Positions 1 through 4,311 of a stretch of DNA of 9,302 nucleotides are shown here, one piece after another. The translations under genes and the position numbers were made by a program. The notes beneath the pieces are model-generated. The model worked only from the letters and a program-made list of their open reading frames with translations, had not been told where the DNA came from and did not search any database. The DNA comes from a virus (Duplodnaviria > Heunggongvirae > Uroviricota > Caudoviricetes): the IMG/VR virus record IMGVR_UViG_2537561977_000032; one strand, written 5' to 3'. How positions within the stretch are numbered: position 1 is the stretch's first letter; every line of letters begins with the position of its first letter.

Positions 1-996
1 CTAACGAACCAGCCAGACCAGCATCAGGATAATCGCGACTAACAGTATCCACAGCGCGGGACGCGTTGCCATATTTTGCAACGTGTCCATCATCGGTGGA
101 AAAGGATTAAGCAGCGGTTGCATATCACGCGGATCAATCCCTTTAACCCGCCGTTGATAAAGCTGATTAAGAATATCCTCGGCCTGGGCAGAAGAAAGCG
201 ATGATTGCGCAGAAAGACCATATTTTTGGTGGATATACGCCGATAACGCTGCCAGTTCACTGGCATCTAAAGGTTGTTTTAGCGCCATCTGTAGTGATTC
301 CAGCGTCGGCGTATTTTGCTGGCTTAACGTCTGGCGCGCCTGCAACCAGGTCACCAGATGGTTAAACAGTTTCGCTGGAATTAACTCGCCATCTTTCACC
401 CCGGAAAGTTCCAGCATCGATTGCCAGATCTGTTTGCTGGGTTCCCCCGTTGCCGCCGCAAGTTTGGTCACCAGCTGTTTTAGCGCATTGTGCTCCGCCG
501 GTAATAAAGGACGGTCGGTCGCCTCGCGCTGCTGTGGTTGCGGAATAACCATCTTCCCTTCCTGCAACAGGGTGAGAATGGTTTTTAATTGCTCCGGTGA
601 GAGCTGATTCAGCGGCGTCTGACCAAAGTTATGACGGATATAATCCGTGACCGCCTGACGATTATTCCCCAGACGTAAATACTCCCCTAATTGCGCTAAA
701 AGCTGGCGGGCAGAATGGCTTTTTTGCGCGGCCAGCAGACGTTGCGCCAGATTATGCTTAGCGGCAGGGAAGTGACGCGAAAGCAGCGGTGAATCTCCCG
801 ACAGACCAATATCGTGCCTGATACCCGCCCACAGTTCTGCTCTTTGTTGTTGCGTCAGTGAGGTCACTTTCGTCATTAAGCTTTCCAGCGAAGTACGTTG
901 CTGACTGGATAAAGGCTGATTGCCCGCGCCAGACGGCAGGTTATCTCCCTGACCTGGTGGTTGCCCAGGAGGAGGGCCGGAAATAGGTTGTATCAT
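1..996 (-). CDS. flk: Probable Flk (flagellar regulator, C-terminally membrane-anchored)
   Basis: Complete 331-codon minus-strand ORF, stop TAG at 1-3. P/Q/G-rich N-terminus (MIQPISGPPPGQPPGQ...), Q/L-rich body and a single C-terminal hydrophobic segment (ALWILLVAIILMLVWLV), matching the size (about 331-333 aa) and tail-anchored topology of enterobacterial Flk. Identity is from recall, not a search. Confidence 0.6.
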   Translation of the reverse strand: MIQPISGPPPGQPPGQGDNLPSGAGNQPLSSQQRTSLESLMTKVTSLTQQQRAELWAGIRHDIGLSGDSPLLSRHFPAAKHNLAQRLLAAQKSHSARQLLAQLGEYLRLGNNRQAVTDYIRHNFGQTPLNQLSPEQLKTILTLLQEGKMVIPQPQQREATDRPLLPAEHNALKQLVTKLAAATGEPSKQIWQSMLELSGVKDGELIPAKLFNHLVTWLQARQTLSQQNTPTLESLQMALKQPLDASELAALSAYIHQKYGLSAQSSLSSAQAEDILNQLYQRRVKGIDPRDMQPLLNPFPPMMDTLQNMATRPALWILLVAIILMLVWLVR

Positions 997-1200
997 TACG
1001 TATCCTTATACCTGAAATCTTCGCAAGTATGCCTGGCCGCGAGATTATGGCACACTTGTCCGGTTAACTCTCGTCTCATACAGGTAACACAAACGTGAAA
1101 ATCCTTGTTGATGAAAAAAACAAAGATTTAATTTATTGATATAAAAGGATTTGTATCAGCGTATGTCCACGCAGTGACCACATTTTCGAGAGGTAGAGTA

Positions 1201-1227
1201 AGCCCGCAACATTGCGGGCTTTGTCTT
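1201..1227. terminator. GC-rich hairpin next to the methyltransferase stop; possible intrinsic terminator
   Basis: Stem AGCCCGC(1201-1207) / GCGGGCT(1214-1220) with loop AACATT, followed on the plus strand by TTGTCTT. On the minus strand it lies directly after the methyltransferase TAA (1226-1228) but the downstream tract is pyrimidine-rich rather than a clean U-run. Confidence 0.4.
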
Positions 1228-2017
1228 ATGGTTCGATCGCCGTTTTGAGCCGTTGTGTTGCTACATCAAAATAATGATCACTGGTTTCTATACCAATAAA
1301 TTTTCGCCCTGCTTTCAGTGCAGCCACACCCGTTGTCCCTGACCCCATAAAAGGATCAAGGACTGTTCCGCCACTATTCACAGTCCTGACCAGTTCCGCC
1401 ATTAGTTCTTCTGGTTTTCCGGTCGGGTGCATTTTCTTTGACGGGATAACCGGGAACGTCATGCAGCCGTCGAACGGTCCCGAAGGCGATTTATCTAAAT
1501 GGCCTTTGCTGCCCCAGACGATGTATTCGCACTGATGCCGGAAATACCCGGTATGTGGTGTTCGTGACCCCCTCCCCTTGTTCCACGCAATGATTCCGCG
1601 CCATGTAAAGCCACTGGCCTGAAACGCATCGGTTAAAGCTGGTAGTTGTCGCCAGTCAGTAAATACCAGGGCATAACCGCCCGGCCTGACTGCGCGGTGT
1701 GCCTGTGCCATCCATAATTGTGTCCAGTAAGCCCACGAACGGGCGTCCATGTTTTCACCCGCGAACCCATCAAAGCGGTGAAGGTTCTCGCCGTTCAGAT
1801 ATTTTGCATGGCTGCCCTGGTTGGTGCGTCCGGCCTTGTGTGTCGCACCCGAACTGTAAGGCGGGTCAGTGATTAAGGCATCAATGCTTTCTGGCTCAAT
1901 CAGCGGCAATATTTCCAGCGCATTCCCACGACAGAGCGTGGCATTGTCAGTCTGATAAACCTTAGTGTGTTCCGGTGTATGTGCTGGTTGGTGCTGGATT
2001 GCGATCCCCACGGTCAT
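1226..2017 (-). CDS. DNA amino-methyltransferase (beta-class N6-adenine or N4-cytosine), probably orphan
   Basis: 263 aa ORF with catalytic motif IV DPPY (ALITDPPYSS) near the N-terminus and SAM-binding motif I FxGxG (LDPFMGSGTTG) near the C-terminus, the beta-class order. ATG at 2017 is preceded by GAGGAG with only a 2 nt spacer; GTG at codon 3 is an alternative start. No restriction endonuclease partner is visible in the window. Confidence 0.85.
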   Translation of the reverse strand: MTVGIAIQHQPAHTPEHTKVYQTDNATLCRGNALEILPLIEPESIDALITDPPYSSGATHKAGRTNQGSHAKYLNGENLHRFDGFAGENMDARSWAYWTQLWMAQAHRAVRPGGYALVFTDWRQLPALTDAFQASGFTWRGIIAWNKGRGSRTPHTGYFRHQCEYIVWGSKGHLDKSPSGPFDGCMTFPVIPSKKMHPTGKPEELMAELVRTVNSGGTVLDPFMGSGTTGVAALKAGRKFIGIETSDHYFDVATQRLKTAIEP

Positions 2018-2159
2018 AACTCCTCATGTGTGTGGGGTGCTCGATGGCTCTCGTTATCTGGTTAAGTGTTTTGCAGCGCGGACATTTTATTTCAATGTAG
2101 TGAAATGAGGCGCGGGCAAGTAGTTTGTTGCAATTTTTGCATCGTACATTTTGCGTCAT
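1962..2159 (-). CDS. com: Com-like zinc-finger protein (phage Mu Com family, translational activator)
   Basis: 65 aa from ATG at 2157-2159 with SD AAGAGGT 6 nt upstream; the ORF track starts it three codons earlier at GTG 2168. Sequence MTQNVRCKNCNKLLARASFHYIEIKCPRCK closely parallels Mu Com as I recall it (..IRCKNCNKLLFKADSFDHIEIRCPRCK..), a CxxC..CxxC zinc finger. Its 3' end overlaps the methyltransferase start by 56 nt, the same geometry as Mu com-mom. Confidence 0.8.
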   Translation of the reverse strand: MTQNVRCKNCNKLLARASFHYIEIKCPRCKTLNQITRAIEHPTHMRSYDRGDRNPAPTSTYTGTH

Positions 2160-2194
2160 TTGCGGCACCTCTTGTGTGGTTACTGCTGCCGATA

Positions 2195-2246
2195 TGATAG
2201 CAAATCGATCGTTTTTATCGATCGGATTTATTGCATTGATCTATCA
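2195..2246 (-). promoter_or_regulatory. Imperfect dyad with three GATC sites upstream of com-methyltransferase; candidate Dam-methylation-sensitive operator/promoter
   Basis: ATGATAGCAAATCGATCG-TTTTT-ATCGATCGGATTTATTGCATTGATCTATCAT: outer arms ATGATAG/CTATCAT, two palindromic ATCGATCG copies flanking T5, and GATC at 2207-2210, 2220-2223 and 2238-2241. AT-rich, located 35-90 bp upstream of the com start on the minus strand. Confidence 0.45.
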
Positions 2247-2297
2247 TTCCTATTGCTTATGAATAGTGTCACCTTCATTTGTGAGGGCAACAAAAAG

Positions 2298-2333
2298 AAA
2301 ACCCGCAGTTTTTACACTGCGGGTTTGTTGTTC
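2298..2333. terminator. Bidirectional rho-independent terminator
   Basis: Perfect 8 bp stem CCCGCAGT(2302-2309) / ACTGCGGG(2316-2323), loop TTTTAC, flanked by an A-run upstream and TTTGTTGTTC downstream on the plus strand. On the minus strand the stem is followed by TTTTCTTTTTGTT, so it should terminate ogr-side transcription before the com promoter region. Confidence 0.7.
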
Positions 2334-2743
2334 ATGTCTGTGAGATAGGGTGCCGTTTCGACCAACCTTAGCAACCGATTGACGGGGGATTACTCCCCCG
2401 TCGCGGTTATCTTACTTATTACATAGTAAGAATGCCGCAATTTCCGTGCCAGCAAACCTGAATCGTAACTCGCACGGTGATGTGTGGAGGATCCAGATTA
2501 TCGCTACCGCAGTTATGCAAAGTAACAGGGTTTTTAACGGAATTTGCGTCATAACGCTTGTCTCCTGAGAGGAGAGGCGCTAACCTTCTACTTGCGAAGG
2601 TAAGAAGTGTTAGGGCCTCGGTTAAACAAAAATGTTTTCCGGGGCCTTTCCACATCTGGCCTTCGGGTATTCCCTCCGACCATCAGCCGAAAGGCACCCG
2701 CGCGTAATCTATCGCTTTTTTGTTACTCCGGCAATTCTGCCTG

Positions 2744-3004
2744 TTAATTCTGAGATAAAGGCAAACTCATCTGATTGTTTCCCCTGTGTGAAGCTGGCAG
2801 ATCATGCCACGGGATACCTTCTGATGAGTGAACGCCGGAGGCGTGTTTTGATGTGAATTTATGGAAAGCTTCCAGTGTTGAGAAGCATACGCCGCATTCC
2901 AGATTGTTACACTGGTAATACTTTTGCCGCACGGTGTTTGAATCATTTTCCGGACGACTGGTGCGGATACGGGCAGATGCGCCACAAAGCGGACAACGGA
3001 ACAT
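2744..3004 (-). CDS. ogr: Ogr/Delta-family zinc-finger late-gene transcription activator
   Basis: 86 aa; ATG at 3002-3004 with SD GGGAGG 5 nt upstream. N-terminus MFRCPLCGASARIRTSR...YYQCNNLECGVCF has the C-x2-C ... C-x4-C zinc-finger pattern and the MF[HR]CPLC start typical of P2 Ogr and its relatives. Lies 42 bp downstream of gpD on the same strand, as in P2. Longer than P2 Ogr (about 72 aa) with a divergent C-terminal tail. Confidence 0.8.
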   Translation of the reverse strand: MFRCPLCGASARIRTSRPENDSNTVRQKYYQCNNLECGVCFSTLEAFHKFTSKHASGVHSSEGIPWHDLPASHRGNNQMSLPLSQN

Positions 3005-3046: not shown

Positions 3047-4154
3047 TCACTCTGTTTCCGCTATCCATTCCGGGATTTTTGCCTCAAGCTCAAGCTGCGT
3101 GGTAAAGCCGCTGTTATCAATGGTGTGCCCGGCTTTTGCAATGATCCAGTCCTGATTATCAATCTCGCTTTTAAATCCTGTTACCGTGCCATGCATTTCG
3201 GGGTAGAGTTCTGCACGTCCACGCGCCAGCGTGATGGAGAATGATGCGGCTCCGCGTTGTAGTTGCTGCCACTTTGCCGCCGCTGCGCGTCTTGCTGCCT
3301 GCTCGTTCTGATAAGTCTTGCGTAACACAAACACATTGCCTTCCGCGCCTTCCATATAATCACCTTCACGGCTGCTGCTTTTCTCCTTTTTGGGTTTTGG
3401 CGGTTTACGGCGTTTCACGCTGACTTTTTCTTTTCCCGTAATTAAGATCAAGCCAGTAGGCGCGTACCCCCGTATACGCCTCGCGGTCAGCAATGCGGAA
3501 CTGATGGCGATCGCCGCTGCTGCGTGTAATGGCGAACGAGGGCAACGGCTGGCCCTGTGCGTTCACGCCACCACCTGGCATGATGAATAACAGATTGCCG
3601 CTTTTTACCGTGGTGATTGCGCCCAGCATTTCCGCCATGCGCGTAAGGAAGGACATGTCGCTTTCTTCGGTCTGGTCGGCGTGGTCGATTTCGATATCCA
3701 TCAGCATTTCGCTGATTTGCGGTTTCAGACCGTACCGGTGAGCGATGGCGGATACCACACGCTCAATGGTCACATCATGCCAGGACACCTCACGTTTAAC
3801 GTTAAATTCATCCCGAAAATCTGCGCTTCTGGCTGAAACAGTCAGCCTGTCCGGCGGTCCTTCGTGAGCGATTTCATCAACAATATAAGTGCCTTTTTCT
3901 GTCAGTGGTTCTCCTTTCCAGCCAATGAGAACCGTCAGGCGCGCGCCCCGTGGTGGTAGCTGCAACTGACCATCTGCATCATCCAGCGTGATGGTGAGCT
4001 GGTCCGCTTCAAATCCCCGGTTGTCGGTCAGTGACAGGCTCATCAGTCGCTCTGTCACGTCGGGCAGTGTTTCACCTTCCGCGAGAATATCAAAATCCGG
4101 CATTTTCACGGGGTCCGGGCCCTGACTGAGCAATTGCATGGTGGTGTCGGTCAT
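3047..4154 (-). pseudogene. D: gpD-like tail protein (phage late control gene D family), reading frame broken by a 1-nt shift in a homopolymer region
   Basis: Two overlapping minus-strand ORFs: N-part from ATG 4152-4154 (SD AGGGAGG upstream) to stop at 3405-3407, and C-part 3493-3047 in the adjacent frame. The C-part (GNVFVLRKTYQNEQAARRAAAAKWQQLQRG...TGFKSEIDNQDWIIAKAGHTIDNSGFTTQLELEAK) matches the conserved gpD C-terminal region from recall. Frames overlap at 3405-3493, where A/T runs (T5 at 3425-3429, T4 at 3431-3434) are the likely shift site. The track's upstream extension to 4286 (MIRQQ...) is not supported. Confidence 0.7.
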
Positions 4155-4311
4155 CTGTTCCCTCCCTGTGCGGCATGGTCGCATGTGCGTGCGGAGGGGG
4201 TTACTGCTTTTTGTTGTCGCCGTGGCGGGAGAACGGCGCAGGGGTGAGATTACGCGCGTGGTGGGTGATGATTGTTGCCGAATCATTTAACGGATACAAG
4301 GGGCTGAAGCT

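Follow-up and report, generated by a model that had tools for sequence, protein, structure and literature searches.

In bacteriophage Mu, the zinc-ribbon protein Com is an RNA-binding translational activator of the mom messenger RNA (mRNA) (PMC6483171). The Com-binding motif obtained by SELEX (systematic evolution of ligands by exponential enrichment) and footprinting is CC(N)2-3GAG, and the Com-bound loop adjoins a translation inhibition structure whose stem holds the GUG start codon of mom (PMC6483171). In several other elements the place of mom behind a com homologue is taken by a DNA methyltransferase gene, namely Hin1523 of FluMu, Nma1821 of Pnm1, Hia5, and open reading frames (ORFs) ORF47/48 of B3 (PMC3299994). 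Com-type control of these methyltransferases has been put forward as a proposal only; the Com-linked enzymes of FluMu and Hia5 were inactive in lysogens, and Hia5 and Hin1523 are nearly non-specific (PMC3299994). In the P2-like Burkholderia phage KS5, gp21, annotated as a “Com translational regulator”, overlaps gp20, a PF01555 methylase (PMC3091744). A further relevant enzyme is M.EcoGII, a prophage-encoded, non-specific beta-class adenine methyltransferase that is silent in its lysogen (PMC5778455). Here, we describe a com homologue overlapping a beta-class DNA methyltransferase gene on the minus strand of a P2-like prophage. It lies in a stretch of 9,302 nucleotides (nt) from the virus record IMGVR_UViG_2537561977_000032, the whole of which is referred to as the window.

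The combination of Com with a methyltransferase is already known: it has been published in Mu-like prophages and annotated in P2-like phages. The initial annotation of the window, for which the combination was not known to be characterised, needs correction on this point. The FluMu, Pnm1, Hia5 and B3 enzymes are alpha-class, D12/Dam-like proteins (PF02086, confirmed here for B3) in Mu-like transposable phages, and in both respects the window differs from them. Closer parallels are found in P2-like phages. Besides KS5, Stenotrophomonas phage Smp131 has an annotated pair of Com and PF01555 methylase (gp05/gp04), of which the methyltransferase is 48% identical to the window enzyme, and Chuche, a phage of Escherichia coli, carries the window module at 92% nucleotide identity, again annotated. 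In all three, as in the window, genes of the same two families overlap, and the genomes are of the Peduoviridae type. The genomic slot differs, as the pair stands beside the tail fibre genes in KS5, beside the portal gene Q in Smp131, and between ogr-hok and the attachment site (att) in the window. Among 5,426 complete E. coli genomes, about 164-170 (about 3%) contain the module.

The locus is probably best explained as a control cassette of the Mu mom-operon type fused to a beta-class, probably N6-adenine, methyltransferase and carried as optional cargo at the end of a P2-like prophage. A Mu com-mom-style translational module with a methyltransferase in a P2-like element had been proposed by the initial annotation, and the homology of both the proteins and the predicted RNA signals agrees with it. 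The 65-amino acid (aa) ORF, initially described as a Com-like zinc finger, is by sequence a member of the Com family. It matched Pfam PF10122 (Zn_ribbon_Com) with 44.6 bits (E=9.5e-12; cut-off 22.9) and PHROG 13819 (“gpCom control of modification”) with E=2e-17, and its product is 60% identical to Mu Com across 42 aa. Cysteines 7, 10, 26 and 29 align with cysteines 6, 9, 26 and 29 of Mu Com, and these four zinc-binding residues, which precede an unconserved tail, do not vary among 11 diverse Com sequences. The downstream ORF matched PF01555 (N6_N4_Mtase) with E=3.4e-33. Its DPPY motif (1867..1856, residues 51-54 in 263-aa numbering) is N-terminal and its FxGxG motif (FMGSG, 1351..1337, residues 223-227) C-terminal, which is the order of the beta class and confirms the class assignment made at the outset. 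As in Mu, com overlaps the 5′ end of its cargo gene; unlike in Mu, this cargo is a beta-class S-adenosylmethionine (SAM)-dependent methyltransferase and not Mom (PF25680).

The RNA signals of the Mu system recur where the two genes overlap (Table 1). A putative Com-binding motif of the form CC(N3)GAG lies, as in Mu, directly 5′ of a hairpin and aligns at the homologous position with the Mu sequence AUGCCUGCGAGCAU; its hexaloop CAUCGA is closed by GC/GC, and the bases GCC..GAGC are invariant over 15 distinct sequences. A hairpin masking the methyltransferase start had been suspected near 2060-1990, and folding indeed predicts one within these limits, with an inner stem CAUGA/UUAUG in addition to the outer stem, enclosing the Shine-Dalgarno (SD) sequence together with both candidate starts, AUG 2017 and GUG 2011. 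The GUG in the 3′ arm and the SD in the loop are features shared with Mu, in contrast to the greater length of the window hairpin (6 + 5 base pairs, bp) and the additional burial of an AUG. Written out in full, the layout is AUGCC-UGC-GAGCAU-CCCAC-GGAG-AAACAUU-GUGGG in Mu and GAGCC-AUC-GAGCA-CCCCAC-ACACAU-GAGGAG-UUAUGACC-GUGGGG in the window, and relatives have AAGGAG or AAGGAA at the position of the SD. The hairpin was predicted in 50-, 76-, 121- and 248-nt contexts with an energy of -14.3 to -14.8 kcal/mol, versus about -10.5 for the Mu region, and the unpaired probability of GUG 2011 in the folding ensemble was 0.00. Over the 15 distinct sequences, 99% of cells in the 6-bp outer stem are paired; shifting the 3′ partners by 1-3 columns drops this value to 31-53%. 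Two compensatory pair changes were found in the outer stem, from C-G to U-A in the Mu group and from C-G to A-U in locus L076. At the distant Com loci of B3, Smp131, Ralstonia RS-AB1, JD024 and L076, other hairpins follow CC(N2-3)GAG, and in these five the arm 3′ of the motif could pair with the SD, the start codon or both. In a Delftia prophage com locus the motif is present and occlusion of the annotated start is not clear. The whole-window Rfam scan returned no family for a Com target.

The position of the start codon followed from a comparison set of 80 viral-contig loci carrying relatives of the window Com. The GUG in the 3′ arm of the hairpin is in-frame and opens the cargo ORF in every lineage, with products beginning MG(I/N/K), and AUG 2017 is absent from the lineages L038, L039 and L068. 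In L038 a stop codon stands four codons upstream of the GUG; therefore, no alternative start is available there. On this comparative evidence the conserved start of the methyltransferase is GUG 2011..2009, not AUG 2017. The initial annotation had counted a 56-nt overlap of the two genes and a poor SD spacing of 2 nt. Both figures are correct for AUG 2017, but this start was mis-called, and from GUG 2011 the overlap is 50 nt and the SD spacing 8 nt, close to the 7 nt of Mu. The two records inspected, RefSeq FDAARGOS_943 and phage Chuche, both start the methyltransferase at AUG 2017 (263 aa) and thus have a wrongly annotated start codon.

Com likely gates translation of the window methyltransferase, as judged from these signals. 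On the mRNA, the SD GAGGAG and GUG 2011 would be locked in the hairpin and the enzyme would therefore remain untranslated by default; Com produced from the same mRNA would bind the CC-AUC-GAG loop, open or remodel the hairpin, and so permit initiation at the GUG. A simpler arrangement would be translational coupling only, in which ribosomes translating com melt the hairpin and initiation at the GUG follows in cis, with no action of Com in trans. The geometry is compatible with it: the hairpin (com codons 41-52) lies inside the translated com frame, 50 nt separate the GUG from the stop codon of com downstream, and the overlapping arrangement is found in all lineages. In Mu, however, where the two genes overlap in the same way, the mom mRNA is described as being bound by Com and translated upon this activation (PMC6483171). 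The CC(N3)GAG motif is, moreover, invariant across lineages, and the strong conservation of the zinc ribbon would be needless if ribosome passage alone mattered. Coupling as the sole mechanism is thus unlikely.

Upstream of com, a sigma-70 promoter is predicted from consensus matches only; it has TG at -15/-14 (extended -10, TGcTATCAT), and its position is kept in relatives. It overlaps an OxyR-consensus-like 37-mer, which is the best consensus match of the whole window, both strands scanned, and exceeds the score of 13/20 reached by the known Mu OxyR region in the same scan. GATC (Dam) sites at 2207, 2220 and 2238 lie within or touch this 37-mer, a cluster resembling that upstream in Mu, and a CGATCGAT-N5-CGATCGAT dyad that aligns with the Mu GATC sites is present in most com lineages. 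The 37-mer with its GATC sites is putatively homologous to the control region upstream of Mu mom. Com and methyltransferase would be co-transcribed from this predicted promoter of their own (about 2221..2194), and its overlap with the GATC-rich OxyR-like site makes modulation by Dam methylation and OxyR possible, as at Mu Pmom. In L035, the aligned representative of one E. coli-type variant (L035-L037), the two conserved GATC sites ahead of com are gone and the -10 element remains; this variant would escape Dam/OxyR control if the GATC/OxyR site is functional.

In its transcriptional setting the window differs from Mu. Its host element is a P2-like phage with ogr, no Mor or C gene was found among the window ORFs scanned, and the core segment of the C-activated promoter is missing. 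Late expression, as initially suggested, found no support: a sigma-70-like promoter of its own stands behind a terminator, and the search of the window found no Ogr-type TGT-N12-ACA dyad upstream of com, where Ogr dependence would place it about 55 nt upstream of the transcription start. The window has a single match, within com (2067..2084), which is no more than chance would give (2.07 expected). As the window held no positive control, this search is weak, and it neither supports nor excludes late activation by Ogr. The same observations would suit lysogenic conversion, in which the enzyme is made in the lysogen from the sigma-70 promoter and methylates the host chromosome, with epigenetic effects or for self-protection; the variable cargo slot at the prophage end, occupied by other genes in related phages, would suit it as well. 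Yet the gate is built like that of Mu mom, whose function is late and harmful to the host (PMC3299994), and both the Com-linked methyltransferases of FluMu and Hia5 (PMC3299994) and the prophage beta-class enzyme M.EcoGII (PMC5778455) are silent in lysogens, so that we regard expression in the lysogen as quite improbable. That Com would act on the promoter as a DNA-binding transcriptional regulator, as its PGAP product name in FDAARGOS_943 (“Com family DNA-binding transcriptional regulator”) implies, is very improbable, since Mu Com has been described as an activator of translation that binds RNA (PMC6483171), the window contains the cognate RNA motif and hairpin, and the PGAP name is a label and no tested result; the evidence favours an RNA-binding translational activator here, too.

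Several observations nevertheless weigh against a Mu-type gate at this locus. The closing stem of the predicted Com-binding hairpin has 2 bp here versus 4 bp in Mu, and the z-score of the start-codon hairpin is modest (about -2). Conservation alone is no proof of RNA function because the hairpin arms are coding in both frames, for the Com residues H-P-T and for the first codons of the cargo. The covariation consists of two independent compensatory events only, more not being available because the arms are almost invariant. In addition to the missing Ogr-type dyad, the window lacks in the alignment a block of 33 nt that in Mu holds the C-activated promoter core, and therefore transcriptional timing may differ from Mu. 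Finally, because close homologues of the methyltransferase occur without com, the enzyme needs no such gate. If the Mu-type reading nonetheless holds, the methyltransferase would modify replicating phage DNA before packaging, conferring protection from restriction in the next host, and the gate would silence a potentially harmful enzyme in the lysogen.

Behind com, different cargo genes are joined at a fixed junction. Downstream of closely related com genes we found, by Pfam, beta-class PF01555 enzymes in the window, L038 and Smp131; Mom (PF25680) in L039, and by sequence similarity also in Mu and L068-type loci; a C5 cytosine methyltransferase (PF00145) in L052, to which the L069-type cargo is similar; and D12/Dam-like enzymes (PF02086) in L076 and B3. 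In each of two independent com lineages, one locus with Mom and one with a C5 methyltransferase are 92-94% identical at the nucleotide level; the shared stretch takes in promoter, com and hairpin and stops about 10 nt past the GUG, which fits a portable gate. A cargo census of 80 loci from species-representative genomes yielded 63 distinct cargo ORFs, of which 29 encode D12/Dam-like methyltransferases, 12 beta-class PF01555 methyltransferases, 8 Mom, 3 C5 methyltransferases and 11 other proteins; the pairing seen in the window thus ranks second. It is conceivable, though doubtful, that the unit of promoter, com and hairpin is a portable gate that recombines at this junction with DNA-modifying enzymes unrelated to one another (Mom; methyltransferases of the C5, Dam-like and beta-class types; perhaps also an ATPase-GNAT enzyme), that the beta-class enzyme is gated because it is a host-harmful adenine methyltransferase of relaxed or no specificity, like Hia5 or M.EcoGII, and that expression senses Dam and OxyR. 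Were all this true, the window would encode a new anti-restriction methyltransferase, small and of broad spectrum.

Other arrangements were seen downstream of com homologues. At the loci L086, L161, L176 and L149, a fusion of about 375 aa has matches to ABC-type ATPases and GNAT acetyltransferases; in Pseudomonas phage Komp_PAO1_1 (L086:2807-4536), a small ORF lies between com and this fusion and a PF00551 formyltransferase comes after it. These loci may represent an uncharacterised Com-gated DNA modification system. In Desulfovibrio (L165, L170), com is followed by a 525-aa ORF (506 aa from the first Met) that joins a ParB N-terminal domain and a SAM-dependent methyltransferase domain (Methyltransf_23). 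In Methylophaga thiooxydans DMS010 (L115-L128), copies of com with a Dam-like methyltransferase occur on many contigs of one assembly; the cargo ORF is identical in 11 of them and several stand at contig ends, which suggests a multi-copy Mu-like transposable prophage.

The closest solved structures to the window methyltransferase are the DpnA-type adenine methyltransferase 5hek (E=9e-21) and CcrM. From these relatives and the DPPY motif, its target base is likely N6-adenine. The enzyme reached none of the NCBIfam equivalog cut-offs, and PGAP calls it “DNA-methyltransferase” in FDAARGOS_943. Membership in the YhdJ family (NF008572/PRK11524), whose specificity is ATGCAT, was rejected at 78 bits versus a cut-off of 292. 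Identity with M.EcoGIX, which is plasmid-borne, was rejected as well, as was identity with M.EcoGII, and both lineages were absent among the phage matches of the methyltransferase at E<=1e-20. M.EcoGII resembles the window enzyme in being beta-class and prophage-borne; it is harmful when over-expressed and its role is presumed to be anti-restriction. Unlike the window enzyme, it is a 349-aa protein from a different prophage and not a close homologue, and no Com gate has been described for it. The closest named phage relative is Bpm of BPP-1 (52% identity), whose gene lies in an early operon. Homologues without com occur in BPP-1, phiE12-2, KL3, and Mu-like prophages of E. coli and Salmonella, and an obligate link between the methyltransferase family and com was rejected on these grounds.

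The whole window is contained at 100% identity in E. coli FDAARGOS_943, where a Peduoviridae prophage abutting the host gene flk carries the com-methyltransferase pair as its last cargo. Along the minus strand the order is ogr, hok/sok, a T-run hairpin, com, methyltransferase, a GC-rich hairpin and flk. The pair had been placed just downstream of ogr; it is downstream, but the hok/sok locus intervenes, with a hok ORF (2552..2412, minus strand) matching PF01848 and a sok match at 2699..2541 that scored 47 bits in the Rfam scan, under the gathering score of 59. The bidirectional terminator said to insulate the unit is matched by a terminator-like hairpin upstream of com, and the GC-rich hairpin probably marks the end of the operon, near the prophage boundary (about 1098). 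DNA homology to the free phage Chuche begins near window position 1098; therefore, the pair is the last cargo before the prophage attachment site, and in the Chuche genome it sits between ogr-hok and att-int. Genes for ogr/delta, gpD, and tail sheath and tube (PF04606, PF05954, PF04984) place the element in the Peduoviridae, and the window DNA matches Gemsvirus 500465-2 and Xuanwuvirus P88. No tRNA gene marking the attachment site was found.

Table 1. Features of the com-methyltransferase locus and its surroundings (window positions).
Feature	Position	Strand	Basis or remark
Beta-class DNA amino-methyltransferase, 261 aa from conserved GUG 2011..2009	1226..2011	minus	PF01555
com, 65 aa from ATG, CxxC...CPRC zinc ribbon	2159..1962	minus	Pfam, PHROG and identity with Mu Com
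SD of com, AAGAGG	2173..2168	minus	
Putative Com-binding motif 5′-CC-AUC-GAG-3′ (CCAUCGAG), directly 5′ of the hairpin	2047..2040	minus	Match to Mu motif
Predicted translation-inhibition hairpin, CCCCAC 2037..2032 pairing with GUGGGG 2011..2006	2037..2006	minus	Folding and conservation
SD of methyltransferase, GAGGAG	2025..2020	minus	8 nt to GUG 2011, 2 nt to AUG 2017
Predicted sigma-70 promoter of the operon, TCGATA, 16 nt, TATCAT	2221..2194	minus	9/12 consensus matches
OxyR-consensus-like 37-mer, putative Dam/OxyR control region	2208..2244	minus	16/20 consensus positions
Bidirectional intrinsic-terminator-like hairpin, parting ogr-hok from com-methyltransferase	2326..2299		T-runs on both strands
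Type I toxin-antitoxin locus of the hok/sok type, lying between ogr and com	2412..2699	minus	PF01848 and Rfam sok
ogr/delta-type late activator	3004..2744	minus	PF04606, E=5e-14
GC-rich hairpin, 4 nt past the methyltransferase stop	1221..1200		Weak minus-strand U-tract
flk, host gene	996..1	minus	

Relatives integrated at the flk site carry other cargo, or none, in the same slot. Between hok and the attachment site on the flk side, the cargo varies (L099:1764-2994 vs window 1098-2330): phage 500465-2 has a zinc-ribbon protein and a VasI/TagO-like protein there, and nothing in P88-type phages matches the segment with com and the methyltransferase. Elsewhere in the window, the tail gene D (3047-4286, minus strand) is broken into two ORFs by a frameshift at an A-rich run near 3420-3435. 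Measured against D of phage 500465-2, which is intact and 413 aa long, the first ORF covers residues 1-284 and the second, in a different frame, residues 309-413. The split may leave the prophage tail-defective, or it may be a homopolymer sequencing error.

These results leave the known mechanism unchanged and extend a known design to one more cargo and one more host element. The Mu Com gate appears to be general and exchangeable, and temperate phages of several families seem to silence DNA-modifying enzymes until these are needed. If gating by Com is true for the window locus, its 50-nt Com-responsive element and the 65-aa protein would constitute a compact, orthogonal translational switch, and the methyltransferase would be a candidate anti-restriction enzyme, possibly of relaxed specificity.

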